Of a DNA stretch of 64,000 bases, positions 6,302 to 62,067 are shown one piece after another. Source of the stretch: Eledone cirrhosa. Lineage: Eukaryota. Every line of letters begins with the position of its first letter. Positions within the stretch are counted from its first letter, which is position 1. Under the pieces are notes generated by a model. The model saw only the letters and a list, made by a program, of their open reading frames with translations. It was not told the origin of the DNA and did not search any database. Made by a program: the position numbers and the translations under genes. The stretch spans positions 187,736,001-187,800,000 of the forward strand of contig OZ024740.1 of the NCBI GenBank assembly GCA_964016885.1, in the 5' to 3' direction.

Positions 6302-6795
6302 GGTAAATTTCTTTTAGTCGTTTGGAAGCCTTGATAATGAAAATGGGTAAATCTCCGGGTAACAAGATCCGGTGGTGGGGAGAGAGATGTAAGTGGGTGT
6401 ACGTTGAGATGCGTGGCGTGTATAAGACGTGTAGAGGAATGAAGGAAAAGCATAAAGGATAAAATAAAAATAACAACACGAGAGAGAGTTACCTTGGGAG
6501 AGATTTAATTGTCTCTATATATTTCGGATTCACATCCATCAACTGGGTTTTTTTTTCCCGGGTAACTCTCTCTCGTGTTGTTATTTTAATTTTATCCTTT
6601 ATGCTCTTTCATTCATTCCTCTACACGTCTTATACATGCTACACATCTCAACGTACACCCACTTACATCGCTCTGTCCACCACCGGATCTTGTTACCCAG
6701 AGATTTACCCATTTGCATTGTCGAGGCTTCCAAACGACTTAAAGAAATTTACCTTATTATTCCACAATGCTTCAAGCAAACTTCAATACTCTCTT
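6302..6795. repeat. Fold-back insertion in (TA)n: ~190-bp inverted arms plus 42-bp one-sided tail (probable PLE pLTR remnant, family D)
   Basis: 6302-6494 is the reverse complement of 6559-6753 with scattered mismatches. Unique tail at 6754-6795. TA runs on both sides. Confidence 0.75.
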
Positions 6796-7081: not shown

Positions 7082-8901
7082 AGTAATAATAATAAAATTG
7101 AAGACTAAAATCCAAAGAGGGCTCGATAAGGAAAATATATATCAAATATATAAGAACCGTAGAGCAAATATTTATTAAAATAACAGATTAAAGTTTAAGC
7201 AAAGAATCGCTGCTTTCACCCTTAACGGGATCTTCTGAAACTAACAAAGTCAATCTGTAAACGCAGAACTGGATATTTCAAAAAACGTTGCAACCGGAGG
7301 AAGACAGGAAGACGATACTTTGGTTCGTGGTAACGTTCGCTGGCAAAGAACGGGAAAAAACGAATAATACGTCATTAATAGGAGCGGTGAAAAACAATTA
7401 CGCGCAAAGACAAAACCACGTTTATGGTATAAAAGATGTCGTAGACTAATGTTCTCTTAAGTGGTGCATAGAGACGTTCTCTGGCAATGAACGAAAAAAC
7501 GAAGATAATAAGTCATATGTGGAGCGTGGAGAACAATAGCACGCAAAGACAAAACCACGTAAATGGTATAGCAGAAATCGTAGACTAAAATTCTAACTAG
7601 GAGACCAAATGAATCTCCGCTACAGAGTTAAGAACAAAGTAAATAAATACAATACAGAAGTAATAGAAACAAATAAATACATACACGCAAACAGATACGT
7701 ACATACACAAGCATACGCAAAACCTTACCATGGGTATACAAAACCACGCACATATAAATATGTGTGTGTGTGTATGCTTGTGTACAAATAGATAAATAAT
7801 TATATAAAATTATATAAGTAAATAAATACGTATATAACAAGCGCACACGCATACCTACATATAAATACACGAATGTTCGGAGACGTAAGTCAACTAAAAC
7901 AAGAAGTACACATATACACACACCCACCATACGTACGAACCTGCACACTGACGCGGACGCAAAACTCCCGTATACACATAGCCAAACCCTAAATACCAAA
8001 ATATGTAAAAATGATACGCTATAACAGTCAAGTATACGTACGAGAAGGTATACATACCTTCACAAAACATACGGGTAATATATACTTACCTATGCAAATA
8101 AGTAAAGGAATAAACAAAACATATACTTAGCTCCCACATCAAGACGTAAAATATCCAGTATAGATCGTGGTATCCGTTAGGGTATAACGTGGGGCTGTAA
8201 TACAGGAAAGTTTAGTGCAATTTATGTTTACAAGCCGAAATTGCCTCAGATTTTTGGTTTAAGATGTGGTCTGTAGCGTAGAGTATTTCCAGGGCCTCAG
8301 CGGCGCAGAGGTCACATGGTCTTTTATTTCCGTTATACGATCTAGCCCTAGCTAGGATCTCCCAGTGTAACTTATATTGGGTGTGGTTGTCTTTTAGACT
8401 CCAGATATAAGCTGAAAGTGACGTCATATTCCTTCTTAGAGGGTAACGAAAAGAATGGGTATGCATGTAAAAACGCTGCTTGAAACTATTGGCGGTTAAC
8501 CCTATGTAGGCCCTACGGGACGTGGGTGTTACAACCTTACATTTGTAGACAATGTTACTAGAGAGGCATTTCCCGGATAGGGGGCAATCAGCCCGATTCC
8601 TACAATTACAGTTAGTACTAACTACAGGGTTGCACGTGTTCCTACGGCTAGGTAGTTTAGCTAAATTTGAAGCTGTGATGTTATGTGCAAGGTTAGGAGT
8701 CGTAGAGTAAGAAATTTTAATAGTATTTCTATTAAAAATTTTACTATATTTATGTGTAGGGGGAACATGCTTCATAATAAGGGAAAGAAAGATCTTAGCT
8801 AATGGTGTGGCCACCTCCATATTATATGGTGGGTTAAACCAACAAATGCGACGGGATCTATTTCTTCTAGGTCTATTTTCGTACTCTGTAATATAATAAA
8901 T
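7082..8901 (-). mobile_element. Penelope-like element family A, 5'-truncated: GIY-YIG endonuclease, 3' UTR/pLTR and tail
   Basis: ORF 8212-8820 has [15 protein letters not shown] (CxCx5Cx5C), NIVY...AYIGLT..FKQR..H, CDLC and CKH. Near-identical to 21745-23503. Flanked by (TA)n. Confidence 0.9.
7192..7242 (-). ncRNA. Hammerhead ribozyme-like motif (type I) with variant core CAGAAGA
   Basis: Minus strand reads AGTTT-CAGAAGA-tCCC gttaa GGGt-GAAA-GCA gcgattctt TGC-TT-AAACT. Stems I, II and III pair. Same motif at 23432-23480. Confidence 0.65.
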
Positions 8902-17433: not shown

Positions 17434-17879
17434 TATATTGTTAATTTATATATGATTTTTTTAATTTATATTAACTATTTTTTTTAGTTCGTTATAACAT
17501 GCTTATAATATTGGTTGTATCATATTTACTTGTATATTTGTCCATATTATTGTTCGTTTTATATTAGATTATTTTATTATTATTATGTTAGATTTTTTTT
17601 TTATTATTGCGTCAGACTATTTGTATGTAATATTTAATTTTTATTAATTCAACTATAACAATTATTATGTAAAATATATTTATTTAATATTGATTGTTTT
17701 CTGTAGTTGTTTATATTAAAAGTCTGAAAATATTTTTATACATCATACAATAATATTTATAAGATCATTTATAAAATAACAAATATATAATCTAATTACA
17801 TTACAACGATAATTTATTAATAATGTATATATCATGTTTAACTAGAGTTATTACAAGCGTTGCCTTAAAAAAATATTAA

Positions 17880-18325
17880 ACTAGACCTGAAAAATGTGCA
17901 AGCTCAAAAGAGCCACAGAATGTTATAATAAACCTTCAAAAGTGTGGGACTAGAGTTGTTGCTAAAAAATATTGTAATCATTATATATCGTACACTCTGT
18001 GGTATCCTTTTATAAAAAAGAGACTCATAACGAACTCAAGACGACACGATAGTTATTTTTTAGAATTTAAAATATAGAATTCGGTTTAAGTGCATTCCGT
18101 ATTAATCATTAGTAAACATCTAATATGAGATATTGAACATTAGCTTAAATAATTATCGTGTCGTCTTGAGTTGGTTATGAGCCTCTTTTTTATAAAAGGA
18201 TGCCACAGTGTGTACGATAGATAATGATTACAATATTTTTGAGCAACAACTCTAGTCCCACACTTTTGAAGGTTTATTATAACATTCTGTGGTTCTTTTG
18301 AGCTTGCGCATTTTTCAGGTCTAGT
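17880..18325. repeat. Fold-back element: ~180-bp inverted arms, right arm abutting (TA)n
   Basis: 17880-18058 (actagacctgaaaaatg...) is the reverse complement of 18147-18325 (...catttttcaggtctagt). Spacer about 90 bp. Confidence 0.85.
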
Positions 18326-19308: not shown

Positions 19309-20312
19309 ATTTCAGGTTATCAATAATGTAGTGATAATATATCGTTACGTTAGAGATGAACAGCGTACGTGCAGGTTTGCTCAACGAGTATAAATTATAT
19401 TCCGGAGAAATGTAGAAAGGATGAATATAAAATGAAAGTGCTTTTGTTAAAAAAGGAATTTATTAGTTATTGACATATGTTTCTGTAACAGACCGAATAC
19501 CTATGTATCGCTGCTTGCGTAATCATATAATGTTAGCAAGTATTCGATAGCAAATGTATAATCAGTTGTCACTTCTTCAGAGATTTTGGATAAACTGGAT
19601 AAAATCAGAAAAATTGAAGTATTTATATTAGTAAAAGAGGAAGGAACAGAGGGGATAGTATATGACAGATGGTAAAATAATTTACTGCTAAACAAGTATA
19701 TAATGGGTTTTTAATGAGAATACCATGAGTAAATCTAAATAAGAATTTTGGGAGTACCAATTTTAATCTCTACTTGACCAACTGGACAGTGGACAGGGCT
19801 GGTCATTTGGTGCAGTAGTATTAATTATAAAGTGTCAATTGGGGAAGGGGGAGATTTCGATTGCTACTAAATAACATCAATGCTAGTAGCCAGCTGGTAT
19901 ATGCATTAGGGAATTGAATCAAGAAATCAGAAATCTCATTTTATCTATAGCCGTTTGTATTAAAAGGTAAATAATAGAAGAGTTGATTGAATTAAGACTA
20001 ATAAAGAATGTTCATATCTATTTTGACAATCAAACGGGGATAGAGACAGGCGTTCAATCCTGGTAGTATTTATAATATGAAAATGTAGATTTTAAGCGAT
20101 GGTTACAGTATAACGATCGCTCTATTCTGTTATTTAATAAAATGTTTTTGGATTTCATAATACAAAATAATTCTACATTACATAATTTACAAAATTCCTG
20201 TCCATGGGGTTATGGGGTGGCAGCCGCTATTATATCCCATTTTAGGTGAAATTGTTGGTTATTTAAATTCCTTTTTTAACAAAAGCACTTTCATTTTATA
20301 TTCATCCTTTCT
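19309..20312 (-). mobile_element. Penelope-like element family G, 3' fragment with inverted end piece
   Basis: Manual translation of 20054-20263 (-) gives [51 protein letters not shown], a PLE endonuclease C-terminus. 20264-20312 is an inverted copy of 19413-19462. Confidence 0.8.
19466..19586 (-). ncRNA. Hammerhead-like motif with long stem II (stem I degenerate)
   Basis: Minus strand reads CTGAAGA-aGTGACA...~80 nt...TGTTACa-GAAAC atat GTC. Palindromic stem III ACATATGT. Stem I pairs poorly. Confidence 0.5.
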
Positions 20313-21408
<1,096 letters not shown>

Positions 21409-21502
21409 AGTAATAATAATAAATTTGAAGACTAAAATCCAAAGAGGGCTCGATAAGGATAAATATATATCAAATATATAAGAACCGTAGAGCAAATATT
21501 TA

Positions 21503-22463
21503 TTACCTCGACGTTACCCTCAATTTATTGAATGGGTTGTATTACCCGTATAGAAAGCCGAATGATACGCTTAATTGCATAAGTAAGCATTCCAACCATC
21601 CTGCCAGCATAACCAAGAACCTGGTAAGAAACGTTTCGTTGAGGCTTTCCCGTCTTTCCACCAACGAGCGTATTTTCAACGACCATTCCACTTATTACAA
21701 TGAAGCTCTTGCTCGAAGTGGATTTGTCGATAAGGTAGCATATACAGAGTACGAAAATAGACCTAGAAGAAATAGATCCCGTCGCATTTGTTGGTATAAC
21801 CCACCATATAATATGGAGGAGGCCACACCATTAGCTAAGATCTTTCTTTCCTTTATTACGAAGCATTTTCCCGCTACACATAAGTATAGTAACATTTTTA
21901 ATAGAAATACTATTAAAATTTCTTACTCTACGACTCTTAACCTTGCACATAACATCACAGCTTCAAATTTAGCTAAACTACCTGGCCGTAGGAACACGTG
22001 CAACCCTGTAGTTATTACTAACTGTAATTGTAGGAATCGGGTTGATTGCCCCCTATCCGGGAAATGCCTCTCTAGTAACATTATCTACAAATGTAAGGTT
22101 GTAACACCCACGTCCCGTAGGGCCTACATAGGGTTAACCGCCAATAGATTCAAGCAGCGTCTTTACATGCATACCCATTCTTTTCGTTACTCTCTAAGAA
22201 GGAATATGACGTCACTTTCAGCTTATAGCTGGAGTCTAAAAGACAACCACACTCAATATAATTTACACTGGGAGATCCTAGCTAGGGCTAGATCGTATAA
22301 CGGAAATAAAAGACCATGTGACCTCTGCGCCGCCGAGGCCCTGGAAATACTCTACGCCACAGACCACATCTTAAACAAAAAATATGAGGCAATTTCGGCT
22401 TGTAAACATAAATTGCACAAAACTTTCCTGTATTACAGCCCCACGTTATACCCTAACGGATAG
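21503..22463 (+). CDS. PLE polyprotein fragment (RT thumb, Cys linker, GIY-YIG endonuclease), 5'-truncated
   Basis: 311-aa ORF-track frame extended upstream to the junction. PLE motifs [27 protein letters not shown] and CDLC. Confidence 0.85.
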
Positions 22464-23431
22464 TACGATTTATACGTCTTGATGTGGGAGCTAAGTATGT
22501 TTTGTATATACCATTACTTATTTGCATAGGTAAGTTTATTTTACCCGTATGTTTTGTGAAGGTATGTATACCTTCTCGTACGTATATTTGATTGTTTATG
22601 TTATATTTGATTGTTTATGTTTATGTTATGTTATAATTTCATATATTCTGGTACATATGGTTTGGCTATGTGTATACAGGAGTTTTGCGTCTGTGTGAGT
22701 ATGTAGGTTAGTACGTATGTAGGGTGTGTGTATATGTGTACTTCATGTTTTGGTTGACTTACGTCTCCGAACATTCGTGTATTTACATGTAGGTATGTGT
22801 GTGCGCTTGTTATATACGTATTTATTTATTTATATACGTTTATATAATTATATATTTATTTGTATACACGCATACACACACACATATTTATATGTGCGTG
22901 GTTTTGTATACCGATGGTAAGTGTTCTGCGTATGCTTGTGTATGTAAGTATTTGTTTGCGTGTATGTATTTGTTTGCGTGTATGTATTTATTGCGTGTAT
23001 GTATTTATTTCTATTACTTCTGTATTGTATTTATTTACTTTGTTCTTAACTCTGTAGCGGAGATTCATTCGGTCTCCTAGTTAGAATTTTAGTCTACGAC
23101 TTCTGCTATACCCTTTACGTGGTTTTGTCATCGTGTTCTCCACGCTCCACATATGACGTATTAATCTTCGTTTTTTTCGTTCATTGCCAGAGAACGTCTC
23201 TATGAACCACCTAAGAGAACGTTAGTCTACGACCTCTTTTATACCATAAACGTGGCTCTGTCTTTGCGCGTAATTGTTTTTCACCGCTCCTATTAATGAC
23301 GTATTATATTCGTTTTTTCCCGTTCTTTGCCAGCGAACGTTCCCACGAACCAAAGTATCGTCTTCCTGTCTTCTTCCGGTTGCACCGTTTTTTGAAATAT
23401 CCACTTCTGCGTTTACAGATTGACTTTGTGA

Positions 23432-23480
23432 GTTTCAGAAGATCCCGTTAAGGGTGAAAGCAGCGATTATTTGCTTAAAC
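23432..23480 (+). ncRNA. Hammerhead-like motif, variant core CAGAAGA (family A)
   Basis: GTTT-CAGAAGA-tCCCgttaaGGGt-GAAA-GCAgcgattattTGC-TT-AAAC. Confidence 0.65.
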
Positions 23481-23532
23481 ATTAATCTGTTATTTTAATA
23501 AATATATATATATATATATGTGCATATATATA

Positions 23533-23765
23533 AAGGTTAACATATACATAAAGTTATAGATATATACATGTTGCAACTGGTCACTTTTAAGCTCTATGGA
23601 GAATTAATAACTTAAAAAATCAGAGCAATATATCATAAATCATGTCTTTAGAATCATCAGATAAAATATATACTATTTCTTCTTCTAATTAGCATAATTA
23701 TGCTAATTAGAAGAAGAAATAGTATATATTTTATCTAATGATTCTAAAAAGATGATTTATGATAT
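23533..23765. repeat. Spacer-less ~135-bp palindrome plus ~95-bp one-sided tail in (TA)n (family H)
   Basis: 23630-23765 is a near-perfect palindrome centred on gcataattatgc. 23533-23629 is unique. Confidence 0.85.
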
Positions 23766-23898: not shown

Positions 23899-24037
<139 letters not shown>

Positions 24038-24128
24038 CGAAGGAAATGTGGTAAGGAACCAGGTGGACCATAACGCACCAAAGTACTCGATACTTGAGGT
24101 AGTAGAGTGGGTAATAGGAACCAGTAAG

Positions 24129-24222
24129 ACCCCGACAGCTGAGCTCAAGCCGTTTCGACGGCTAATTCTGGACTAAATGAAAATTTATCCTGGTATTTAA
24201 ATAGCCGATCTTCTCAAGGGGT
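24129..24222 (-). ncRNA. Hammerhead ribozyme, U3-A8 variant
   Basis: Reverse complement of the motif at 25138-25231. Confidence 0.75.
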
Positions 24223-25137
24223 AATTCCATATATGGTCAAAGTGATTGTCAAAAATCAGTAGTAATTCTGTGGTTGCAAATTAGTAGGGGAGATGGTGGC
24301 TAAACCTGCCAGTAGGAGAAAGAGGGGAGGGGGTGGAGTAGACCCAATCAAGCGTTGGTAGTGCCAGCTACAGCTGGGCATGAGGTCAAAGAAGATACAG
24401 GGGAGGGGGAGGGAGAGGAAGTCGGAACGGTAGGTAGAACAATGGGGGGTAGAAATAGGAAAGAAAAAATACTGAGAGTGAAGAAAAGCAAATAAGTGTA
24501 AAGAAAAAAGTAAAGTAAATTAAATTCTACGACCTAGGTCTCAGGCTATTGTTAGGCTAGAATAAAATAAATAAAGAAAGAAAGAAGTAAATAAATAAAT
24601 AAATAAAGAAATAACGAAATAAGTAAAAGAACTAGGTGGGACGGAATAGGCAAGGACCCTTTTAAGAGGTATAAGTACGTAAATGATACGGTGACGGGTC
24701 AACAAGAGGGGCCAAAATACTAAAGAAACTACCACGAAATAAACAATAAAGGTTTCCATCCCGGGCCAGCAACGACCCAGTGCAGCAAAGTGAACTTGTA
24801 CGAGATAATAATTCTGAGTCCCGAGAAAAATATATACTAATGCTAACTCTAAAAGATCTAAAACAAGCTACATGAAAGTTCGTACGAAATAAAGGTAGAA
24901 TACGGAGAAATAAATTCAGAATCCACCCCGCCCAGAAGAAAAGCGAAGCAAGAAATACTGAAACGAAAAAATAAGGCATAAGTGCCACTAAGAAATATAG
25001 AGGGCACCGAGAATAGTGGGAGCGGTCGGAAAAAGGGGGCAAGTATCCGGGGTCTAAGCCAACTGCTATAAAGGGCGGAGTCCGCCAAATCTATCATAGA
25101 CTGATTTTTGATAATCACTTTGACAATATATGGAATT

Positions 25138-25231
25138 ACCCCTTGAGAAGATCGGCTATTTAAATACCAGGATAAATTTTCATTTAGTCCAGAATTAGCC
25201 GTCGAAACGGCTTGAGCTCAGCTGTCGGGGT
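25138..25231 (+). ncRNA. Hammerhead ribozyme, U3-A8 variant, GUC site at 25224-25226
   Basis: ACCCC-TTGAGAA-GA(t)CGGCTA...TAGCCGTC-GAAAC GGC ttgagctca GCT GTC-GGGGT. All three stems pair. Confidence 0.78.
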
Positions 25232-25258
25232 CTTACTGGTTCCTATATATATATATAT

Positions 25259-25751: not shown

Positions 25752-28721
<2,970 letters not shown>

Positions 28722-29590
28722 ACGTTATTCCGGGTTGAATCGGAGGTAACCACAGTAAGTAAGGTACTCAATACATAGCAGAGTATAACAGTTTTAATAT
28801 AGATGAGATTCTACAGGACTAGAACTGTTTCATTCATTAGAAATCATCAGGAATCTGGGTATCAAAAAATAAATATGGTATTTATAGGTCTCTACAAGTG
28901 GTAGGAGAGGGTGGGGTGTGGGATGGGTGCAGGTCATTGGTTGATAGAAAAGGGAATTCATTAAAAGCTAATTCTACAAAGCTATAGTTAATTTATATTT
29001 ATTTATGTTTTTAGAGTAACAAAGGCAGACAGAATTCTATAAACAGGTTCCGGATGGCATACCATTCCTTGTCAATAAGTTTCTCTTAAGCTAGCAGATG
29101 TCTATAAAATCAGTGGGGGGTCATTCATGCTCGATAGAATTAAAGAAAAGGGAGATTCTTTAAAAGCTAAAGTCATTAAGGTTCTACTAAGTGACAAAGG
29201 TCTAGGGAATTCTGCAGACAGATTCAAAATACTGAGTGCATATCTTACTATTATCTTCGAACTTCTCTTAAACTAATCAACAATATGCCAAATCAACAGA
29301 CACATTCACAAAAAAACAAAAAAACCCCAAAAAACAAAAAAACAGATAAACAAAAAAAACCACACCTAAAAAACAAAAAAACAAAAAAACACACATACTC
29401 ACTCACACATTTACGCGCAACCATAAACACACACACAAACACATATACACACATAAAAACACACACACATATATAAAAAATATATAAATATATACAAATA
29501 TATATTCATGTACACACACATACATACACACATACATACATACATACATAAATAAAATACATATACACATATACATACGCACACATATAT

Positions 29591-31287: not shown

Positions 31288-32385
31288 TATATATATATAT
31301 ACACACAACACATACACATATACACATATACAAACAAATATATACACATACAAGTAAATAGGTACTCAATAAATATACGCATATACACAGGCACATAAAG
31401 ACACCTCTACAGGCAGAAAAAGTAGATACAAATGAGGTACTCCCATGACCATTGTGGCCGTATTCCAGGTTGAGGAGGGGTGGGGGTAGGGTGGGGAGGA
31501 GGTATAGGGGCCAATAGGGGGAGGTCGTTTTTAGCCATCGGGCTTTAACACTGGCTTAAAGTGTTTGAATGTTGCAAAGTTCTTGTGCATGCAGTTCGGG
31601 CAGTGTTCAGAGAGTTTGTTCAGTAGCGGGCCCTTGGCGAATAAAATTTCGTAGCTCTCTGAAATACAAAGGTCGCAGCCCTTGTGTCCTCCGTTGTAAG
31701 AGCGCGCTTTCTGGAGTATTTTCCAATTAAGCGTGAAGGGGGTGGAGTTCCTTTTGAGGTCCCAAACGTAGGAGGCGAGTGTTGTTTGGTTTGATTTATC
31801 CGGTCTTCTGAAGGAGTGGGTATGGGCATACCAGCGGGTCTTAAAGGTGTTGGAGGTCATGCCGATGTAAGTTTTTTTGCAATCCTCGGTGCCCGAGATG
31901 ACATCGCATTTGTATACGATGTCGTTTGTGAGGCATTTGTTTTCTAGTGGGCATGTTTCCTTATTTAGGCAATTACATAGAACCCCAGTCCGGGGATTGG
32001 TTTCGGAGGTGGTAGGCTTATTTAGTTTAGAGTTGTGGTTGGCTATATTCCTAGCTAGGTTAGGTGTGGTGGAGTAAGACAGTCTTATAGTGTTCTTATT
32101 AAAGATGGTGTAGTACCTATGTTGTATGGGGAAGTGTAATTTCAGTAAAGTGAACAAAAATGCTAGCTATCGGAGTGGATACCTCTCTATTGAAGGGAGG
32201 GTTGTACCAGCTAATCTGCCTATGTCTATTCCTCCTCTGCAATTTTGCGGTGGTTTCTAGGTAAGTTATCTTATCTTTAAATCCGCTACGGGCTAGGGCG
32301 TCATTGTAGTAGGAGGCAGATACATTAAAAATATCTTTGTTGGCGGAGAGGCCAGATATTCTAATAGAGACGCTTTTTACTAGGT
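28722..32385 (-). mobile_element. Penelope-like element family E, 5'-truncated, with microsatellite-expanded 3' UTR
   Basis: ORF 31531-32157 has CNCLNKETCPLENKC, IVY...TYIGMT..FKTRW..H and CDLC. Thumb-coding sequence continues to about 32380. (CA/TA)n expansion at 29390-31400. Hammerhead near the 3' end. Confidence 0.85.
28806..28856 (-). ncRNA. Canonical type I hammerhead ribozyme (GUA site)
   Basis: Minus strand reads AGATTC-CTGATGA-tTTC taat GAAt-GAAAC AG ttctagtc CT GTA-GAATCT. 6-bp stem I, intact core. Confidence 0.85.
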
Positions 32386-32424: not shown

Positions 32425-32567
32425 TAGGAACCCCAGAATTAGCCGTCGAAACGGCTTGAGCTCAGCTGTCGGGGTCTTACTGGTTCCTATTACCCACTCT
32501 ACTACCTCAGGTATTGAGTACTTTGGTGCGTTATGGTCCACCTGGTTCCTTACCACATTTCCTTCGT

Positions 32568-33138: not shown

Positions 33139-33792
33139 AAGTTGAGTATGAAAATGTCTACACATGAACGCGTATGTATGTACATGAATACATGTGTGTA
33201 TATATATATGTATGCATGTGTATATGTATGTAAGTATGAATATGTGAATGTGAGTATATGTATTTTGTAGAGGTGTGCAAATATATTTGTGTGTGAATGC
33301 GTGGGTGAAAGGATACGTACACTTGAAAGAAAAATTTAAGTCTGAATGTTAATTAAGTGCAAACACAAAACCAACCACGCATATCTTTACTATCTCTAAT
33401 CCTTCTATAAATTTAGAAAAATAACCAATAATATATTCTATAAAAATGTCAAAACAACAGATGGGAATCTAATTACTCACTGCCACCAAAAATTCTCACT
33501 GCTATCAACAAACCACTCCCTCAACTATTCTTCTAACAACTTCACCCCTCCCTCCTAATATTCTCTATAAAAACCAAGTAGGTCCTCAATAATATTATTC
33601 TGATGAAATGACAGTAAATAATAACATTGAAATATTGAATGTCTGCATAACTAAAACTTTGTAGATAGCAGCTGTTTTCAGGTTATGTAACTGTTATAGA
33701 AACACGTGTCAATAAATTCCTTTCAACTAAACTGTATCCATTCAAATCTTTCTATATATATATATATATATATATACATACATATGCATATA

Positions 33793-34147: not shown

Positions 34148-35532
34148 GCATATGCCATGTAAAACTATATATATACATATATTATTACTGTCATTATTGT
34201 TCTATTATTGTTCTGTTACTTGTCCTTATTCTGTATACGGACACAAGTTTGCACCTCATACTACCTGTGTGTAGTATATCACATGGATACACGCACCTTC
34301 TACTGTACCCCCACCCCCGTTTTTTATTTTACCCATTTTTCATGTACCTATTTATGACGTTACATACAGATTTTAGTGTATCCTAAAATATTGTAAATTT
34401 ATTTATTTATTTTATTTTAATTGTTATGCTATTGTGTTTATATTCGCATGTTTCTATGTGTGGACCTGTGCGTATGTATATGTATGTGTGCGTGTTTGTA
34501 TATATATGTATATATATACGTGGGTGTGTATGAGGGTGTGTATATGGGCATGGATGCGTGTATGCATGAGCCTCCGAGCGCGTGTATGTGTGGGCATGTG
34601 TGAGTGTATATATATGTGTATATATGTATATATATATATATATGTGTGTGTGTGTTAGTGTGTGTGTATGCATGAATGTGTGTGTGTGTGTGTGTGTGTA
34701 TGCATGAATGTGTATGTATGTGTGTATGTATATGTGTGTGTGTATGAGTATGTATATATATATAAATGTTTATAAGGTTGTGCGTATGTATGTGTGCGCG
34801 CGTATGTGTGTATATGTGTGTATGTTTGCGTAGACCATGCTTGTCCGACCGGATATATGGCGCGACTTAAGCAGCCGTTATAAGGTTTGTGGTGATATGT
34901 ATCTAGAAGTTGGTGTGAGTCCGTGGAAGTGATGGAGAGCGTGTGTGTGTGTATATATACATATATGTATGTATGTGGGGAGGGGTGTCTACGCATGTTG
35001 GCGTACGTGTGTGTATGCACGAATGTGTCTGTGTCTGCATGTGTGTGTATATGTGTATGTATATTCGTATGTGTGGGTGCTTACTCTGGAGTGTGAACAG
35101 ACGTGTGAGATACTGAACCCAGCATGACGCCATTGAAATGTGTAGGACGGAAAATGGCTGATGACCCGTGTAGCAGTAAATACCTACCAGAACTTGTGAT
35201 CACGTGGAGTAAAAACAGCCATTGGCATCACAAGTGTGGAAGAGGGTTTTTTTAGTTTTTATTTTGAAAATATCTCCCCCAGTGATAAAATTTGCTCCGA
35301 ACGAAATATCCTTGTCTGAAAGAACCTACAGTCGTAGAATCAGCCAGATCCATACAGGGACCATGTCTCGAGCTACCTGCCGGCGAAACAATTGTAACAC
35401 GCAATAAATTAAGTCCAGATGCATCACTGATTTTTCGTTTTCTCTTTATACTATCTACACTCTACTCTGCTGAATATCGAGTGCTAATTTTGGCATACCG
35501 CCTATGGAAGCACCATAGCTACCATTATACAC

Positions 35533-35581
<49 letters not shown>

Positions 35582-37469: not shown

Positions 37470-38883
<1,414 letters not shown>

Positions 38884-39639: not shown

Positions 39640-40541
39640 TATATACATATATAAATTAATAAAGTAATGAATAAACAAAGAAACAGTTCCTTATATTAAA
39701 AAAATTCATCATTTTACGATCGTATCTAGGATATATATGTGTTAGTGTTGGTATGCATATTCTATAGATCTATGTAAAATACCTGAACAAAGCCTTGATA
39801 TTTGCTAAAAATAGATCTAACTTAACTTTGGATGACATTAATATTATTACACATGCCAGGCTAACACTATTGGAATTTCAAAATGAATACTGGACCAGAA
39901 ACACATATAGTAATCTATTCGATATTACTATGGGCTCAAGCGATTCTGCCCAAATTACTGATCTTGTGGGCCTCTTTCTTCTTTTCAATATAAATGCTTC
40001 CTTTCCCCACCTTAAAGGTGGTTTATATCGTGACGACTGTCTTCTTCTTTCCAATAATCTTAGCCTTTCAGAGATAGAAAAAAATAAAAAGCTTATTAGA
40101 ACTTTCCTTAAAAACTATTATAGTCTAGATATTACATTTGAAAACACAAGTAAAGTAGTTAATTTTCCTTGATATAACATTAGACTTATCTACGGGTATC
40201 TACGAACCTTACCATAAACCTAACCAAAATTTACACTACATACACTCACAATCTAATCACCCTAAATCTATCCTTAAAAACCTAGCATATAATATATCAC
40301 TTAGAATTTCTAACCTTTCGTCTAACCAGGATGTATTTGATAAAAATGCGACATTTTATAACGAAGCTCTAGATAGAAGTGGCCACAAAAATAAATTAGT
40401 ATATATACCTTGTACCAATAACACTATAAACACACAACCTAATATTACCAACAAACACCAAATGAAACATACACACCTAAATGCCACTCACACTATACCC
40501 CAAAATACCAACATAAAAGCAAATTTCTCTAACTCTTCTAA

Positions 40542-41757
40542 TCTATATATATAAAACTGAGGTTGTCTGTCTGTCTATCGATTTTTGGCACACATCTCCT
40601 CTTAGAATCTCTCACGGAATTGCACCGAAATTGCTATACTTGTACATTGAGCCCTAGCGAAGACGTCGGAAAAAAATATTTCAAATTGACCCGCCCTATC
40701 TGACGAAATCGAATATAATGTATCGATTTTTGAGCGTAAGTGATCAGTTATTTCCCTTTGTTCTGTTTACATTCAGCGTAGCGTCTTACGTTCTCTTTAC
40801 ATTTTCTGCGTGCAAAAATTAAAAAAACTGATTTCCCTTTGTTCTGTTTACATTCAGCGTAGCGTCTTACGTTCTGTTTACATTTTCTGCGTGCAAAAAT
40901 TAAAAAAATTACGCTGGCAAAAATTAAAAAAATTACGCTGGCTTTCTCAGCGTTTAAAATGACATTAACACAATACACGAACAGTTGTCGAGCCAGCAAA
41001 ATTTTGACCTGCAAAATTCATCAGTTCGAACACTAAGCTTCCGTTTTGCTTCATTTCCATTTAAAAGCCTTTTAAAACAATATTTTTACTTGAAAACAAG
41101 TCTATTTAAAGACTACGTAAAACAAGCAAATATTTCGTAAAAAAAAAGCAAAAATTATATAAGTTTATTTAAAATATATGTATCTGTAAATTTCGTTAGG
41201 CGTACAGACAGACAGTCGTGCAGACAGACAGTCGTGCAGAGAGGTGATATAGGCGTGCAGACAGACAGTCGTGCAGAGAGGTGATATAGGCGTGCAGACA
41301 GACAGTCGTGCAGAGAGGTGATATAGGCGTGCAGACAGACAGTCGTGCAGAGAGTTGATATAGGCGTGCAGACAGACAGTCGTGCAGAGAGGTGATATAG
41401 GCGTGCAGACAGACAGTCGTGCAGAGAGGTGATATAGGCGTGCAGACAGACATAACTGATAATTTGGTTACGCTAATGTTTTTCTCTGCCTTGCAGTGTT
41501 TACATTTTCGATCTTTGTTAATAAATAACCAGTGCAGTTTTTATCCCCAGCATCCTCTTTTGTTATAACATTCGGGTTATCGTTATGTTTTCTTAACTTC
41601 ATAAGGCATATTGTTGGTTGAGGGAATATTAATCAAAAACACCACATGCAAGTCTGCACAGTAGACATTACAGTTTTTAAGCCAAAAAAGAAACTTAACA
41701 TTGTAACTTTAACACAGCTATTGAGCGACCCCGAGCAACGCCGGGCTTTACTGCTAG
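40542..41757 (+). mobile_element. Non-autonomous Helitron-like element
   Basis: 5' A|TCTATATATATAAAACTGAGG. 3' hairpin cccgagcaacgccggg then ctgCTAG|T. No TSD. Removing it restores the PLE reading frame. Confidence 0.88.
41198..41452. repeat. 37-bp minisatellite (~6.5 copies) inside the Helitron-like element
   Basis: Unit aggcgtgcagacagacagtcgtgcagagaggtgatat starts at 41251, 41288 and onward. Confidence 0.95.
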
Positions 41758-42934
41758 TATACAATATAGTAACTCTCAAAAAACCACTCATCCTACAACT
41801 CTAATAAATGGTAATAATAAAACTCCTAATAAACAAGCTAAAACACCTAAATCAATAAATCTAACTAAAAATGTGTGTGGTGAAGTCATTAACAATAATT
41901 CTCTTAATAAACATCAGGATACATCCTATAAAAACAATAAACAGCATCGAAACCGTAATAGACGAGTTACTTGGTATAATGCTCCATTTAATTTACAAAT
42001 TAAGGATAATATACCTAAAAAATTATTTAATATCCTAGAGAAGAACTTCCCGCCAAACCACAAATACCATCAAATTTTAAATAGATCAACGGTTAAATTC
42101 TCCTACTCAACAACCAAAAACATAAAACAAAATATAAGTGCCTACAATGCATATAAGTGTAAAAAAACCATGAGTATACCACCAGTACATCAAACTAACC
42201 ATAATATCTCCTCGGATACAGGATTCACGAAAAGTTGTAACTGTAGAAACAAGGTAAACTGCCCATTAAAAGGAAATTGCCTTGTTAATAACATAGTATA
42301 TAAATGTAAAGTTAACACTAAGGACTCAATTTATTCCTATATAGGAGCTACCTCTAACAAATTTAAGGTAAGATTTAATACCCACAAACATAGTTTTAAA
42401 AATGCCGCACTAGCTAATACAACATCTCTAGCTGAAATAATTAATAATTATAGAAAGATGAATATAGATTATGACCTGACCTGGAGTGTGCTCAAAAGAG
42501 CCACCCCTTATCAAAATAATAGATATGAATGTAGATTATTTTCTCAAGAACTTTTTGAAATAATGAAATCTAAGGATATCCTATTAAATAAGCGACAGGA
42601 ATTAATAATATCGTGTAATCATAAACTGAGAAAAACCTTTAAATATTATAAACCTAATTAATATACATTTTAGAAATTAATATATAAACTGTTTTTAATT
42701 TAGTTAACATATAATTCATATTCTACTACTGATGAACTACATAATTTTACTTTCCTTCTTACAACTATCATTTCCTAAAACTGATACCATTAAGTAAACA
42801 TATAATGCTTTAATTTCAGGTTATGAATCTATGTTCCTTGAAATCTCTATATATTTATTATTTCTCACTAATAAATATAACTCCCCCCCCCCAATAATTA
42901 TATGTATGTGTATGACTGTATATGTGTATGTGTA

Positions 42935-43001
<67 letters not shown>

Positions 43002-43740
43002 ATGTGTGAGTATGTATATATATATATAAATATATATATATATTATTTTTATATTCTTTTAATTTCCCCTCATCTTTAACAGCACTCTCCAACTACATCT
43101 AACTCTTATTTATCATATCTATATGCATTAGTATAAATTTATCAATATAAATATACCCATCAATTACATTAATTTATATTCTTTTCATGGATGTATTCTT
43201 TTCACTAACACTCTTATTGTAACATTTTAGTCTCCTTAGATATTTGCATTGGCATTACTATTTTATAACACCAACTGTTCGTATACCTTTTACTGACCTG
43301 ACCTATTTTCACCCCTAAAATAACTTTATCATTCTTCACAATCCATTCAAAACTGAAATCTACCTTCTTCTAACCCTAAATTAAACTTCAATTACTACTA
43401 TTTTACCATTTGGCCAATTATTAACTCTCTATTGGTTAATTCTAAACCTGTTACCAAACAGACAGACTATATTAAATCTTTGTTGGTTTTATTCAATGAA
43501 CAAATATAATTATTATCTGAGGTCAGCATACGACCTATTTTCATCCCTAAAATAATCTTTCATTCATAATATTCTTTTCCATCCAAAACTGAAATCTACC
43601 TTCCTCTACCCATAAATTAAGGTTCTTTTACTACTATATTACTATCTTGACCTTCACTATCTTTCTATTGGTCAATTCAAAACCTGTTCCCAAACAGACC
43701 TATTGTATTAAATCTTTGTTTTTTTTCAATAAACAAATAT

Positions 43741-43880
43741 CATTATTTCTGAAGACAGCATATATATGTGTAGGTATGTATATTCCCTCTGATAGTTTGT
43801 ATAAATATTTTACATACATCTATAGAATATGTATACCAACACTAACACATATATATCCTAGAAACGATCTTAAAATGATG
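43741..43880 (+). ncRNA. Hammerhead ribozyme with ~105-nt stem II domain (family C)
   Basis: CATTATTT-CTGAAGA-cagcATATATATGTGT...ACACATATATATccta-GAAAC gatc TTA-AAATGATG. 8-bp stem I. The inverted duplicate near 39715 retains gatcGTA. Confidence 0.7.
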
Positions 43881-44068
43881 AATTTTTTTAATATAAGGAA
43901 CTGTTTCTTTGTTTATTCATTACTTTATTAATTTATCTTGACTCTGTTTTCCATTAATTTTCACCGAAAATAGTTTTTGAATGCATCTTCTCTTTTCATG
44001 ATATCTGGATTACAATGAGTTCTTCATACGGATTGGACACTACCGTAAATTTTTGGTAGATTTATCTA

Positions 44069-45821: not shown

Positions 45822-46011
45822 TTACATATAAATATATATATATATGTATATATATATATACATATATATATACATATACATACATATATATATATGTATA
45901 TATATATATACATATATATATATACATATATATGTATATATATATATATACATACATATATATATATATATGTATATATATACATATTTATATATATATA
46001 TATGTATGTAT

Positions 46012-46154
46012 TTATGACGTAAACATTTACGACGAGATCTGCTAAGCAGATACACAACAAACTAAAACATGTCGAAGTCTCTTTCAAACTAATTCAAAAC
46101 CATTTCGACATATTTACTCTAATGGACAAACACAACAACAACAACTACAACCGC

Positions 46155-46188
<34 letters not shown>

Positions 46189-49100
46189 GCCAGGAAGCCA
46201 GGAGCAACCACTACTGAATTCAAGCATAATCGCTGAACTACTAAATGACAGTTTTCACTCAGGCAATCACTCAGTCATTATCGCCATCACCATCACCACT
46301 GCCACCATCTCCTGCCACATCTACATCTTCTCCCACATCTACATCTTCTGCCTCACCAACTGCTAGTAATGGACCACTGCTCTCTCTCCCACCACAGTTG
46401 TCATCATCATCATCATCACCACCAATGCTTTCTTCCCGCACATTACCACCAAAGCCATGACATAGTCAAAAGAACTATAAAAAAAAAGTTCTATGGAGCA
46501 GTATGCACCTCCCACTAAACATACTAGAAACCCCAAAATATGCCGCTATTCACTACGTCAGAGGCTATGCACACGTAGCGACTGTATATTTACCCATTTA
46601 CTGGGTACTAGGTGCACTAACACTGACAGCCATCACCAAAGCAGGCTGCCTGCACGTATAGGTTGCAGTCCCAAAATCTGCCAACATTCCCAACGTGAGA
46701 GGCTATGTCTGCTGACTGACTGTCCCTTCACTCATCTTTCTGGGACACAATGCACAAACAGAAAAGGGGCTTCATGCCAACCCACAATCCACAATAAAAC
46801 CACCCCCTGCTGCGGTAATGCTGCTCCAGTCTCCTCACAAAGACATGATTACAACAACAAAAACAACAAAAGTAATGCTGCTCCAGTCTTGTTACAAAGA
46901 CACGATCACAACAACAACAAATACAACAAAAATAACGCTGCTCCAGTCTTTTCATAAAGACACAATTACAACAAATACAACAAAAACAACAAAAGCGGGA
47001 ACTACAACTCTATCCAATGTTGTAACCACAAATCCAATAAAAAAACTGCTCCCTGAACAAAAAAAAAATCTTTCTTTTTTAGCCATGAACCTGGAAAAAG
47101 AGATAGAGAAAAACATTTTAGCCATCACCCAACACCAACCTTGTTGTCACTAACACACAATCACAAAACAAGCCCCCTGCAACAGTCAAAACCAGCCACC
47201 TCACTAGCCTCCACATTCTTACTCAATACACAAGGTATCAGCCCATCCATCAATGCACAGAAATGGAAGATCCAATTCATTGAGGATTTGGTTGGTAACC
47301 ATCCATTTCACATCTCCTTCTTCATTCTTACTGAGACCCACCTTGACAAATCTCCCACTTGGAGGCCGAAGTAAGAGTGAGAAATATCACAACCATCCGT
47401 GCGGATTGTATTGGCAGAAGGAAGGGTGGAACTGCCATTTTCCTGCATGATTCCTTTACGGCAGATGGCAACACAACATTCTCTAATGGATACTGTGAAT
47501 CAGTCACTGTGCACAATAAAGCCAATGACCTGACATTAGTTGGGCTCTATAGGCCACTACAAACACCCATAATCTGTTTCAAAGAATGCCTCAACAGTAT
47601 TAAATGCTTTATTAAACAGTGCCATTCTAGCAACATACTTTTGATGGGAGATTTTAATCTACCCTGTGTCGATTGGTCTACATGTAGTTTGAAGCCAGGC
47701 TCCACAGCCTCAACCACTGACAAAGAGGCTGTCGAGTCACTTCTTTACTTCATGAATGAGTTTTTCTTGTCCCATCTTGTCCTTGCACCAATGAGGCATC
47801 AGAAGAACATTGTGGATCTAGTCTTTAGTAACCACACTAACACTATACATAATATTACAGTGGAAAAAACCCTTCTCTCAGACCATGACATGGTTCTTTG
47901 TAACCTGAGATTCCACCAGCCGAAAGCTAATCCCAGGGTCCTCTCTCCAGCCCTCCCATTTGATCTCTACAATGCCAACAGGGATGCAATTATGAATGAA
48001 CTATCACATGTCAACTGGTCTTTTACACACGCACACACTTCCACCAACATCAAAACATCTTGGCAGATCTTTGTAGACACTGTCACAAATATATGTACAA
48101 AACACACCCTACCAAAACCTGTGAACAAAAGTGCAGTATCCCCCAAAACAGAATATCAGAAAAATAAAAAGAACAAACAAAAAAATTAACATACTAAAAT
48201 ACTGCCAACAGCAACACACACATTCAATGGCTATCACCCTGCTTTAGTCAAAAAAATATAAACTCCAGCAATGCATGATGACCATCATCAATAACCAGAG
48301 AATAGCTGAAGAGAGGTGGGCCATAGAGAAAATCAAACTCAACCCCAAAGTGGTCTTCTCATTTGCTAATAAAACACAAGGTCACCGTCTCCACTGTTGG
48401 CCCCCTAGTTGATGAAAATGGCACACTCCAGGACAATGCCAAAACCAAGGGCGAGATACTGCAGAAACAATACTGCTCTATTTTCAGCAACCCTGATATG
48501 GCAGATCTGGGCCGTATCAGTCATATAAATCCCCAACACACAATATCAGACATAACGTTTGGCGCCCCTGATGTCTTAGCGGCAATAAACAAAATTAAAC
48601 ACAATTCAGCAGTAGGCCCCGACAGGTTCCCTGCTTGTGTCCTGAAGGTGTGTTGACACCAACTTGCAACTCCTCTTGCTAATCTGTGGAGGAACTCACT
48701 GGACACTGGCTATATTCCTGAAAACCTTCTGTCCCAGTCTGTTGTCCCAGTCTTCAAAAACTGATGTCACTGATGTCATCTACCTTGATTTCAGCAAGGC
48801 CTTCGACAGGGTTGATCATAAAATTCTACTGAAAACACTATCCAATATTGGTGTCTCTGGAAGATTACTACAGTGGATCAAATGTTTCCTGACAGGCAGA
48901 ACCCAGTATGTTGTAGTCGAATGAGTAAAATCAAGCCCTGCCAAAGTCAGCAGTGGCGTCCCAAAAGGGACTGTGTTGGGCCCACTTTTTTCATCATCTA
49001 CATTAATGACATTACTGACATCATCAAACACAGCAACATCACAACCTTCACAGATGATTCCAAGCTCCAAAGTCTCATCAATGAGGTGAGTGACCGGACT

Positions 49101-50022
49101 TGCCTTCAGTCAGACCTATTGGCTGTTATCCAATGGGCAGAGATGAATAATATGTTGTTGAATGAGGATAAATTTGAACTAATACACTTTGGATAAAAGT
49201 ATGCCCTGAAACTACCATACTCTCTTCCTTCGGGTGAAACTCTAGTGGTTTCCAATAACATCAGAGACCTTGGAGTAATTGTGGACAAAAATATAAGTTG
49301 GGCCCCTCATATAAACAGCAAAGTTGATATGGCCCGCAGAATGAGTTCCTGGATTCTCAGAACATTCCAGTCGAGAGATATCCACACTCTTGTTAATCTC
49401 TTCTCCACTTTTGCCCAACCCCACCTGGAATACTGTTGTCCAGTGTGGTCACCCCACATGAAACAAAGTATCATGAAAGTTGAAGCACTCCAAAGGTTAA
49501 TTAAAAAAAAAATAGTTGGCATGACAGGCCTTGACTATTGGGGTCGATTAGAACAGCTCAAACTTTATTCTCTTCAAAGTCGCCGTGAGCGCTACATTAA
49601 CTGTATGATGTGGAAAATATTCCATCAGCTTAGTCCAAATGATGATGGCATCACCTTTAGTGTACACCCAAGTCTTGGGCCCCGTGCTATCCGCCGCCCA
49701 CGACAAAAATCCCACTCGCATCACATAACAACAATGCGGCACAATTATTTCACCTCAATTGGCCCTGCACTCTTTAATATTGCACCAAAACACATCAAAG
49801 CAGAAACAGACCCCATCAAATTCAAGAAGTCTTTGGATAAATCCCTTCAAGAAATCCCGGATAAGCCTCTTACATCCGGATATGCCTCCGTAAACAATAA
49901 CTCTCTGCTCGAGTGGGCAATGGTGCCCAAACACTGATTTGTAAGACTTAGCTAGGTGGTGCTATGAAGTTAGACATGGCCTGGGCCTATACTGGCCGAA
50001 ACCTATCAAAGTTATCAAAGTT
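46012..50022 (+). mobile_element. CR1/L2-group LINE, decayed (CCCH zinc-finger region, APE, RT)
   Basis: Two KIC..S.R.RLC...DC.FTHL repeats. APE motifs LTETHL, GGTAI, GLYRP, LLMGDFN, DLVF and SDH. RT motifs SAVGPD, YLDFSKAFD, SGVPKGTVLGP, FTDD, RDLGV and PHLEYC. Ends in a tandem tatcaaagt repeat then (TA)n. Many frameshifts and an RT-internal deletion near 48760. Confidence 0.88.
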
Positions 50023-50122
50023 ATATACATATATATATATACATATATATATATATACATATATACATATATATATACATATATATATACACACATATAT
50101 ATATACAAATATATATACATAT

Positions 50123-50388
50123 ACAGTATTCAAGTTGGCGTCGGGGCAAACTGGAGAAGAGAAGGACAACAGTGTGGATATTTCTCGACTTGAAAGTTCT
50201 GAGAATCCAGGAACACATTCTGCGGGCCATATCAACTTTGTTGTTTATATGAGTGGCCCAGCATATGTTGTTGTCCACAATTACTCCCAGGTCTCTGATG
50301 TTATTGGAAGCCACTAGAGTTTCACCCAAAGGAAGAGTGAATGGTAGTTTCAAGGCATCCTTTTTTCCAAAGTGGATTTGTTCAAATT
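50123..50388 (-). mobile_element. Inverted fragment of the same CR1-like family
   Basis: Encodes [34 protein letters not shown], a diverged paralogue of 49170-49435. Confidence 0.85.
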
Positions 50389-50402
50389 TATATATATGTA
50401 TG

Positions 50403-56596: not shown

Positions 56597-56751
56597 ATAT
56601 AAATTTTGAGTATATGTTGGTTGTATACCAACACCTCAGAATGCAGATTGGAGCACTTGACGAAGTGCGCAGTTTGGTTTTGTTTATCTGGAGTAATGTA
56701 AATTAAAATAACATAAATAATTCAAATGTTTAAAATTTGGCTTCGTTTATT

Positions 56752-56806
56752 ACTGCTATATATATTTCGGTGACAGCCATCTTTGGCTGTGACCTCTTCA
56801 GTCAGT
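56752..56806 (-). ncRNA. Hammerhead ribozyme (canonical core, (UA)n stem III) in a ~325-bp pLTR-like insert 56600-56925
   Basis: Minus strand reads ACTGa-CTGAAGA-GGtcACAGCCA aaga TGGCTGTcaCC-GAAA TATATATA-gCAGT. Confidence 0.75.
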
Positions 56807-56929
56807 CCGAATTAGTGTGGTACAGACGAGTACACATGTTGTTGAGGTGTTTAACGTTGTCAATACCCTGATATGCACAGTTCCTGGTTGGGTTGTTATT
56901 TCACGGAGGAACTGGAAACATTTTGTATG

Positions 56930-58344: not shown

Positions 58345-58741
58345 ATTAAGGATATATTGTGAAAGAAGTAGAAGAGTGGATGAATAAGTGTAATATGTAT
58401 AAGTTAGATGGGCATGAAAGGGAGAAAAAAATAATGAATTGAGGATGAATAATCTAACGTCAAAAAAATGTTTATGTTTACGAAGGATTTTTTCAAGGTG
58501 ATATTATGAAGTAAGAATATATTGTGCTGAGTAATAATGATAATTGAGAAGTATCTAGGAAGAAAAGGTACAGATTAGAGGTTAGAAATTAAAAGAAAAA
58601 AAAAAAGAAAAGAAAAACGGAAAAAAGAAAGAAAGGGAAGTGATAAATAGGAGTGATATAGAATGAGTAACTAGTATTATATAATGTATAATAAATAACA
58701 TTGAAATAAGATAGAAAGATGGGTATATTTTTAAAGAAATA

Positions 58742-58775
<34 letters not shown>

Positions 58776-59580: not shown

Positions 59581-59592
59581 TAGATATGTGAG

Positions 59593-59941: not shown

Positions 59942-59947
59942 AAATAT

Positions 59948-61661: not shown

Positions 61662-61706
61662 GCTCTGATGATTCCTACCTCATGGTATGGATGAAACATT
61701 GTCAGC
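61662..61706 (+). ncRNA. Minimal type I hammerhead ribozyme (GUC site) in pLTR-like insert 60813-61852
   Basis: GCT-CTGATGA-tTCC TACC tcat GGTA t GGA t-GAAAC att GTC-AGC. Confidence 0.8.
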
Positions 61707-61984: not shown

Positions 61985-62067
61985 TAACGAAGGAAATGTG
62001 GTACGGAACCAGATGGATCATAACGCACCAAAGTACTCAATACTTAGGGTAGTAGAGTGGGTAATAC
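61985..62067 (-). mobile_element. Solo tail of family B in (TA)n
   Basis: Matches 24036-24116 and stops at the gggtaata boundary. Confidence 0.8.

Follow-up and report, generated by a model that had tools for sequence, protein, structure and literature searches.

Paired end points and a conserved tail hairpin at the inverted ends of Penelope-like elements in a 64-kb window of Eledone cirrhosa

The original paper on twin priming by L1 elements reportedly dates from 2001. Twin-primed L1 insertions (PMC2912911) carry internal deletions in 66% and duplications in 17% of cases (medians 14.5 and 22 bp), which have been ascribed to under- or over-run on one RNA (10.1101/2024.08.27.596794). Among Penelope-like elements (PLEs), an inverted 5′ piece and a tail at one end are published traits (PMC8557442, PMC3846280, PMC8969392), and the formation of their tandem and inverted ends has been named an open task (PMC8557442). 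Fold-back at a palindrome was proposed for the inverted ends of Penelope (PMC3846280), and the tail, 30-40 nt long in other PLEs (PMC8557442, PMC11167929), was attributed to resolution mediated by the endonuclease (EN; PMC8557442). The element PAc (Poseidon, Anolis) has two reverse transcriptase (RT) start sites in vitro, one at each boundary of the tail, and cutting and extension occur on both strands of the target; a stem-loop lies at the start region, the protein is a predicted dimer, and the later steps of insertion were left unvalidated (Frangieh et al. 2024, PMC11167929). Here, these systems are compared with a PLE insertion at 21410-23503 of a 64,000-nt stretch of the Eledone cirrhosa genome (contig OZ024740.1, positions 187,736,001 to 187,800,000), the whole of which was analysed and is called the window below. 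Taken singly, this copy is ordinary PLE anatomy and unsurprising to a specialist; the useful part is a pattern over copies. New here is the pairing of two recurrent end points, site 1 and site 2, in 15 of 17 insertions, with a conserved, covarying hairpin between the two sites. Twin priming would be a likely explanation of the long-noted inverted ends of PLEs.

Layout of the insertion and pairing of its end points

The insertion consists of two head-to-head pieces of one truncated PLE (family A), 2.1 kb in total, between TA tracts. The original prediction placed an inverted tail at the 5′ junction and described the tail as missing from the 3′ end; both points were borne out, and the layout confirmed, by aligning the copy at 7083-8901 with 21410-23503. 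Its details needed adjustment: the inverted piece, given as 21409-21504, spans 21410-21505 (96 bp), and the tail, present as described, extends 87 bp past TAATAAAT (7083-7169), the earlier length of 95 bp having counted the motif. The left piece aligns with 7083-7177 through 94 matches, one mismatch and one gap, too long a match for chance, while the right piece (21506-23503) aligns with the reverse complement of 7170-8890 at ~96.5% identity in the open reading frame (ORF) and the last 200 bp. Since the 3′ end halts at TAATAAAT (23496-23503) and is followed by (TA)n, the tail is absent there. The two pieces do overlap solely at the site 1 motif, by 8 nt, or by 10 nt with the flanking AT. The microhomology (t)ta that had also been proposed for the junction depends on a junction codon TAC (Tyr), and the 31 homologues are split at this position, 16 having Tyr and 15, the closest one included, having Phe; a Phe at the ancestral junction codon would mean that no such microhomology existed, and no copy covering the family A body upstream of 21506 was found in the window.

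The ends of family A copies fall repeatedly on two points. Site 1 (TAATAAAT/ATAT, the slash marking the end point) is used at 23503, 26702 (minus strand) and 59944 and is also present at 8894-8901, this end being shared by four family A places (23496, 26708 on the minus strand, 59934 and 8894); site 2 (TTAC/TATA) is used at 7083, 21410 and 26787. In a pattern scan, TAATAAATATAT was found four times in the window, three of these being family A ends. Site 1 is a fixed end at the four family A places and in two family B copies; the second primer would therefore not have sat at a random internal spot, and the process would be like twin priming without being the L1 process. By analogy with PAc, sites 1 and 2 may be RT start sites of the same kind as its two. 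On this analogy, 21410-21505 would be a complementary DNA (cDNA) primed at site 2, and a cDNA primed at site 1 would extend from 23503 back to 21506.

The pairing of the two sites was followed through the window by a census of 59 islands between TA-rich tracts together with masked self-BLAST, and through outside genome contigs by a search that yielded 20 loci with protein relatives (L001-L020), of which eight insertions were readable at both ends; L001-L004, L006, L007, L009, L011-L016 and L018-L020 were excluded because an end lay off the contig or was not resolved. The window holds nine clear head-to-head insertions, each with one tailed and one tailless end and none with like ends, and six of the eight outside insertions pair site 1 with site 2. 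Unlike pairs thus make up 15/17 (9/9 and 6/8; p=0.0012 against 0.5, the highest discordance reachable by independent choice and hence the most lenient null); restricted to families whose sites are fixed by other copies, the count is 9/10 (p ~0.011, by hand arithmetic). Non-overlapping inversions account for 3/15 and inversions that read through site 1 for 12/15. In the non-overlapping trio (21410-23503, 26702-26787 and L008 6708-6807), the inverted piece carries sequence that is missing from the direct piece. With the 15/17 unlike pairs, the two further non-overlapping cases and the in vitro precedent in its favour, the claim of the original prediction that two primers, one per start site, were extended and joined head to head can be upheld with good confidence.

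That two separate events produced this layout, a solo tail such as that at 61987-62067 having landed beside an older, 5′-truncated body in the same microsatellite, is very improbable. Solo tails do exist, (TA)n tracts gather several insertions, and unrelated pieces abut without TA at 59592/59593; yet the two pieces at 21410-23503 belong to the same family on opposite strands, begin at complementary start sites and make a TA-free contact at 21505/21506 (one TA at most, and no TA tract) at the edge of a ~820-bp tract, whereas independent insertions adjoining one another in the outside loci kept at least 5 TA units between them in 6/6 cases. The divergence from the copy at 7083-8901 is 1.1% in the tail and 3.4-3.5% in the body, values that are mutually compatible, and the same pairing recurs in 15/17 insertions.

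Between the two sites, the tails share a hairpin (Table 1). The sequence RCTC 2-6 nt past site 1, with its complement GAGY downstream, is present in 8/11 tails with both ends known, where shuffled sequences lead one to expect 0.1. Past the 2-nt bulge follows an inner helix of variable sequence, which lay outside the search pattern and averages 3.4 pairs, against 0.65 in shuffled sequences (18 tails, window and loci combined). The first hairpin pair is G-C in 14 and A-U in four of these 18 tails, the first inner pair likewise changes on both sides, and the covariation score was reached by 0/500 shuffles. Folding energies of whole tails were no better than those of shuffles (z -0.7 to +0.7); the case for the hairpin is one of conservation and not of stability. 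The eight hairpin tails are 59-132 nt long, or 28-53 nt with the hairpin folded out, near the 30-40 nt of the tail in other PLEs (PMC8557442, PMC11167929). Such a spacing would be expected if the protein set the distance between two active sites engaged on one RNA, and it is also compatible with one enzyme with two start registers. A second hairpin stands behind the first in L009, L002 and L013, and the apparently full-length copy at L009 2726-5281 has its 5′ end at the tail hairpin, just past site 1 of the upstream pseudo-long terminal repeat (pLTR).

One RNA, two RNAs or fold-back

Programmed twin priming by one protein-RNA complex on one RNA is the explanation that we moderately favour for 21410-23503. 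A single complex would introduce a nick into each strand of the (TA)n target, which is self-complementary. The two free 3′ ends would then prime on the same element RNA, each at its own site (1 or 2), and the hairpin between these sites may position the two active sites; the dimeric state of the protein is carried over from the Poseidon paper. The two incomplete cDNAs would then be end-joined in a manner tolerant of microhomology. Where the site-2 enzyme stopped before or at site 1, a non-overlapping product would result (3/15, this copy included), and where it displaced the site-1 cDNA and read on, the well-known arrangement of an inverted pLTR with a single tailed end would be formed (12/15); both enzymes stopping at a palindrome would leave a palindromic junction. 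The use of two primers with head-to-head joining is the firmer part of this scheme, and the derivation of both cDNAs from one RNA has somewhat better than even standing.

Several observations weigh against twin priming on one RNA as set out above, some by limiting the data and some by their direction. The sample is small, hand-curated and drawn from mixed hosts; in 6/15 insertions, including those at 6303 and 17833 with their unproven PLE identity, the sites were defined within the same copy; the outer-stem RCTC/GAGY pattern was defined on the very tails in which it was counted, and the covariation may be inflated by the relatedness of the tails. Among the site-2 pieces shorter than 350 nt (n=13), three end within 10 nt of site 1, one of the three with an uncertain site 1, and the probability of such stops is 0.04 under a uniform, 0.24 under a log-uniform and 0.09 under a permutation null. 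The two cDNAs do not correlate in length (rho 0.11), and partial duplications with the longer piece at site 1 show no deficit (2-3 seen, 3.5-3.7 expected). The junctions for which both references exist count on both sides. In favour of twin priming are overlaps of 4-5 bp (26.7k), 10-11 bp (10/11 matching; L017 U) and 1 bp (L008 X2), the junction within 26702-26787 having a 4-bp microhomology, CCCT, beside one mismatch (4/5 bp); three others have none, and of these the L008 T and L017 X3 junctions, with zero microhomology and 2-3 extra bases, count against it.

The same figures bear on the cause of the stop near site 1. The original prediction held that the tail cDNA halted because the second primer sat there, which is possible; with 3/15 non-overlapping against 12/15 read-through inversions, and an enrichment that is non-significant in two of the three nulls, it is doubtful that such blocking caused the stop in the 21410 copy. 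Since stops at site 1 are not clearly enriched, the cDNA lengths are uncorrelated and partial duplications are near expectation, this copy is best seen as one point, at one end, of a continuum and not as a separate class. The family A copy at 7083-8901 was excluded from the count because its 5′ stub (8891-8901) reads two ways, as an inverted site 1 (8 nt plus 3 nt of filler) or as a direct site-2 end (13/14 nt); if inverted, its stop base would be that of the 21410 piece, a hint of a pause 8 nt upstream of site 1. A separate idea, that the site-2 cDNA never stops within a longer site-1 span, was refuted by L017 U (147 vs ~210) and L008 T (82 vs ~600).

Two primers may also have been extended on two RNAs (a dimer) or on a tandem RNA with two pLTRs, each strand having its own template and some asymmetry making one side prefer site 1 and the other site 2. 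This is unlikely but retains appreciable weight, because duplications of hundreds of bases are harder to obtain by over-run on one RNA; in the 21410 copy, the site-2 cDNA would on such an account merely have ended after 96 nt, to which we give the same modest credence. The duplications have a median of 82 bp and reach 758 bp, against a median of 22 bp in L1, and together with the independent cDNA lengths they count for two RNAs and against one, as do the insertions with like ends: L017 1324-5119 has site 1 at each end, with arms that are the same except for a 13-bp deletion, and L010 77-2059 probably has site 2 at each end. The TA-free junction at 59592/59593 (in 58345-59944), where two different Hydra-type families meet head to head, is a candidate for a two-template event, or for a later insertion with deletion, and tandem copies with an internal tail in L007, L013 and L002 would suit either two RNAs or a tandem RNA. 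As a caveat, duplication does not by itself imply a second template or a tandem pLTR, as the original prediction had concluded from the copies at 24036 and 39651, since L1 obtains duplications by read-through on one RNA. The pLTR duplications in these two copies are real (147 bp with 2 mismatches and 131 bp with 4 mismatches, respectively); both copies carry the tail on the long piece and have a short inverted piece that starts at site 1. The orientation of the 39651 copy is set by the direction of its ORF, and that of the 24036 copy is inferred from strand composition, the pyrimidine bias at 24037 being 0.68 on the minus strand, compared with 0.53-0.67 in nine known 3′ regions read on their sense strand. 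Against two RNAs stands the extra rule that would be needed for 15/17 unlike pairs, as a symmetric dimer predicts half at most; the short, bounded folded-out spacing of 28-53 nt is readily understood if two active sites act on one RNA.

The palindromic junctions raise fold-back, or self-priming, in which a single cDNA or an antisense template would turn back at a palindrome and be copied from itself, followed by endonuclease resolution that removes the tail from one end, which we consider improbable. The insertion at 23567-23765 has a palindromic junction with equal arms, L017 5136-5419 comes near to this, and palindromes are reported to be frequent at inverted junctions (PMC3846280); such junctions would, on the other hand, also be expected if two cDNAs of like sense annealed at a palindrome. 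Fold-back necessarily duplicates sequence of the direct piece, and the 3/15 insertions whose inverted piece consists only of tail sequence missing from the direct piece do not readily fit; in addition, both ends of the tail serve as RT start sites in vitro (PMC11167929).

Twin priming on one RNA may extend beyond this insertion. As a joint proposal, tentative and somewhat short of an even chance, hard-wired twin priming would be the normal insertion route of Hydra-clade PLEs and perhaps of all endonuclease-bearing PLEs; a dimeric RT-endonuclease would grip one RNA at the bulged hairpin, with sites 1 and 2 in separate active sites, and extend the two strands of a palindromic cut in (TA)n; and the tail would be the RNA between these active sites, with inverted pLTRs, palindromic junctions and solo tails as outcomes of a race of one enzyme against the other.

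Identity of the element and neighbouring insertions

The frame at 21504-22460 is open over 319 codons and unites the RT C-terminal motif (YLDV), thumb, linker and endonuclease; the order of RT thumb, linker and IYK..YIG corresponds to a C-terminal GIY-YIG endonuclease after the RT. A protein search returned 31 longer homologues (565-884 aa, E 7e-72 to 2e-38). The linker is of the CxCx5C and not the CX2-5CxxC type (CNCRNRVDC in family A) and is kept in 26/31 homologues; CDLC..E and CKH in the family A protein correspond to CxxC and CxH around a conserved E and N; and there is no CCHH motif, as no pair of cysteines separates the GIY and YIG halves of the endonuclease motif in the family A protein. 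RW[KR] occurs in 18/31 homologues and DKT or a near variant in most, the family A copies being truncated before this N-terminal region, and (TA)n abuts the ends of all four family A places. A C-terminal endonuclease (EN+), the CxCx5C linker, CxxC/CxH, RWK with DKT and a (TA)n target are diagnostic of the Hydra clade (PMC8557442), and judged by those of these features that its copies retain the element is a 5′-truncated Hydra-clade PLE. Searches of Pfam with the family A protein and three full-length homologues, and a profile search of PDB with the protein, gave no match; an AlphaFold model (pLDDT 80.5) had GIY-YIG nucleases as its top Foldseek hits, at a non-significant E>=0.78.

The hammerhead-like core of family A, CAGAAGA, is found in both 23436-23459 and 7214-7237 (minus strand), with short helices; it had no Rfam match and a fold energy no better than that of shuffles, was lost by deletion from the copy at 59593-59944, and may, to judge by its sequence, be degenerate or a variant. 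Relatives in the outside loci have CTGANGA...GAAA cores. The Rfam scan over the whole window gave zero matches and missed the family B hammerheads at 24130-24220 (minus strand) and 25140-25230 (plus strand), which have a U3-A8 core, a long helix II loop and a GUC site; the U3-A8 variant has been described before (PMC4209133).

Table 1. Features of the insertion at 21410-23503, other insertions in the window, and insertions with paired sites in outside contigs (L-numbered). Paired lengths give the site-1 piece / the reach of the site-2 piece past site 1.
Location	Strand	Feature	Basis; lengths
20586..21409	.	(TA)n/(TG)n microsatellite, left flank and insertion target	sequence; target-site duplication unreadable in such flanks
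21410..21505	-	inverted piece: site-2 end (G21410), 88-bp tail, site-1 motif TAATAAAT (21498-21505)	94/95 match to 7083-7177
21445..21493	-	conserved tail hairpin: GCTC / inner helix / 2-nt bulge / GAGC, then CCT	conservation across tails
21504..22463	+	5′-truncated ORF: RT C-terminal motif (YLDV) and thumb, CxCx5C linker, GIY-YIG-type endonuclease with CxxC and CxH	translation, homologues, clade definition (PMC8557442)
22464..23503	+	3′ untranslated region and pLTR, end at site 1	alignment to 7170-8890
23436..23459	+	putative minimal hammerhead-like core CAGAAGA...GAAA, non-canonical at core position 4	pattern scan
23496..23503	+	site 1 motif TAATAAAT, then (TA)n 23504-23532	same end at 4 family A places
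7083..8901	-	family A reference copy: site-2 end, full tail (7083-7169), reads through site 1; 11-nt 5′ stub 8891-8901	alignment
19310..20313	.	family G: long site-2 piece (-) with EN remnant and 50-bp site-1 piece (+)	50 / +850
23567..23765	.	short insertion, palindromic junction: tail and 68 bp (-), 68-bp site-1 piece (+)	68 / +68
24037..25243	.	family B: long site-2 piece (-, direction from strand composition), 147-bp site-1 piece (+), U3-A8 hammerhead variant in pLTR	self-alignment; 147 / ~+990
26702..26787	.	second non-overlapping family A insertion: ~50-bp site-1 piece (-) joined to distal 39 bp of tail (+)	alignment; 50 / -48
32427..32567	.	family B: 9-nt inverted site-1 stub and site-2 piece (tail and 58 bp)	9 / +58
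39654..44068	.	family C Hydra-type PLE: 131-bp inverted site-1 piece and long site-2 piece, 132-bp tail	131 / >3000
61987..62067	-	family B solo tail, ending within site-1 motif	alignment
L005 2874-5222		site 1 + site 2, arms 758 bp, identical	
L008 3322-5247		site 1 + site 2	
L008 6708-6807		site 1 + site 2, non-overlapping: 51 bp and 50 bp of distal tail	
L008 6856-7598		site 1 + site 2	
L017 5136-5419		site 1 + site 2, junction palindromic with nearly equal arms	
L017 5827-6240		site 1 + site 2	

In the length notation of Table 1, the insertion at 21410 has a site-1 piece of ~2000 and a site-2 reach of +9, and that at 6303-6794 measures 196 / +263; at 17833-18324 the pieces are 179 and 267 long, in either assignment to site 1 and site 2. 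The insertions at 6303-6794 and 17833-18324 have tails of 39 and 47 nt and lie in TA; ORF, hammerhead and hairpin are all absent, so that their PLE identity is read from the layout, and they may represent the ends of a different PLE clade, for example Naiad. The count excluded the 59592 junction and the single-ended insertions at 61987, 35535, 28723, 33752, 38773, 56602, 61854 and 31353-32384.

The window is AT-rich and packed with (TA)n/(TG)n microsatellites. Further PLE-like 3′ ends lie at 28723-29300, 33420-33752, 35420-35535, 37492-38773, 56602-56923 and 60815-61854; they have hammerhead cores or the tail hairpin, followed by (TA)n, and were read at this one end. The family C copy is disrupted by a frameshift and a foreign insert, the latter ~1.1 kb of sequence with short tandem repeats that splits it at 40545-41699. 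The RT-EN linker is long and asparagine-rich in family C and in the element at 59250-59590. Repeats of (AAAGTTATC) terminate a LINE-like element (long interspersed nuclear element) at 46011-50388, where a TA tract harbours a 269-bp fragment in inverted orientation (50123-50391). Together with 49168-49436, this fragment forms an inverted pair that was judged by eye a LINE-like repeat and dropped as a candidate PLE insertion. The L001-L020 contigs come from records with bacterial titles and have (TA)n tracts and animal-type retrotransposons; they are probably host contamination of the assemblies.

Comparison with known systems

In the literature covered, to which older subscription papers and figure-only supplements did not belong, there was no account of PLE inverted ends by twin priming and none of a tail hairpin. 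The pairing rule and the non-overlapping copies make the formation of PLE ends testable, by genome-wide counting and with barcoded RNA, and if twin priming on one RNA is true, the tail hairpin would be a cis-element candidate in mobilisation and could mark Hydra-clade ends for annotation.

The closest known system is the Hydra clade (Craig et al. 2021, PMC8557442), with which the present families share the GIY-YIG-type endonuclease, the linker, CxxC/CxH and the (TA)n target; RWK/DKT in many of the full-length homologues and a putative hammerhead near the 3′ end are further likenesses. They differ from the clade as described there in their tails, for which neither a length of 59-132 nt nor a conserved hairpin was found in the accessible parts of that description, and in the non-canonical hammerhead core of family A. 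The general PLE architecture, with an inverted piece at the 5′ junction and the tail at a single end, is likewise shared; in contrast to the published examples, in which the pLTR is duplicated, the inverted piece at 21410-21505 is the tail alone. As far as the accessible text of these accounts goes (PMC8557442, PMC3846280), the published explanations invoke self-priming or endonuclease resolution and not twin priming.

PAc resembles the present elements in its two tail-bounding RT start sites, the stem-loop in its start region, its AT-rich target and the cleavage and extension of both strands (Frangieh et al. 2024, PMC11167929). It belongs to a different clade, however, and its paper, in the parts that were accessible, neither ties the extension of both strands to an inverted 5′ piece nor tests one RNA against two.

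The likeness to L1 lies in cDNAs that are primed by two target ends and meet head to head at an inversion point where microhomology and short deletions or duplications are seen (PMC2912911, 10.1101/2024.08.27.596794). The second primer of L1 anneals internally at random, wherever complementarity happens to exist, and only some L1 insertions are inverted; here neither start point varies, the cDNA primed at the inner site can be the longer of the two, and the median duplication is ~4x that of L1. If twin priming on one RNA is the correct explanation, a telomerase-related retroelement does routinely what L1 does by accident.

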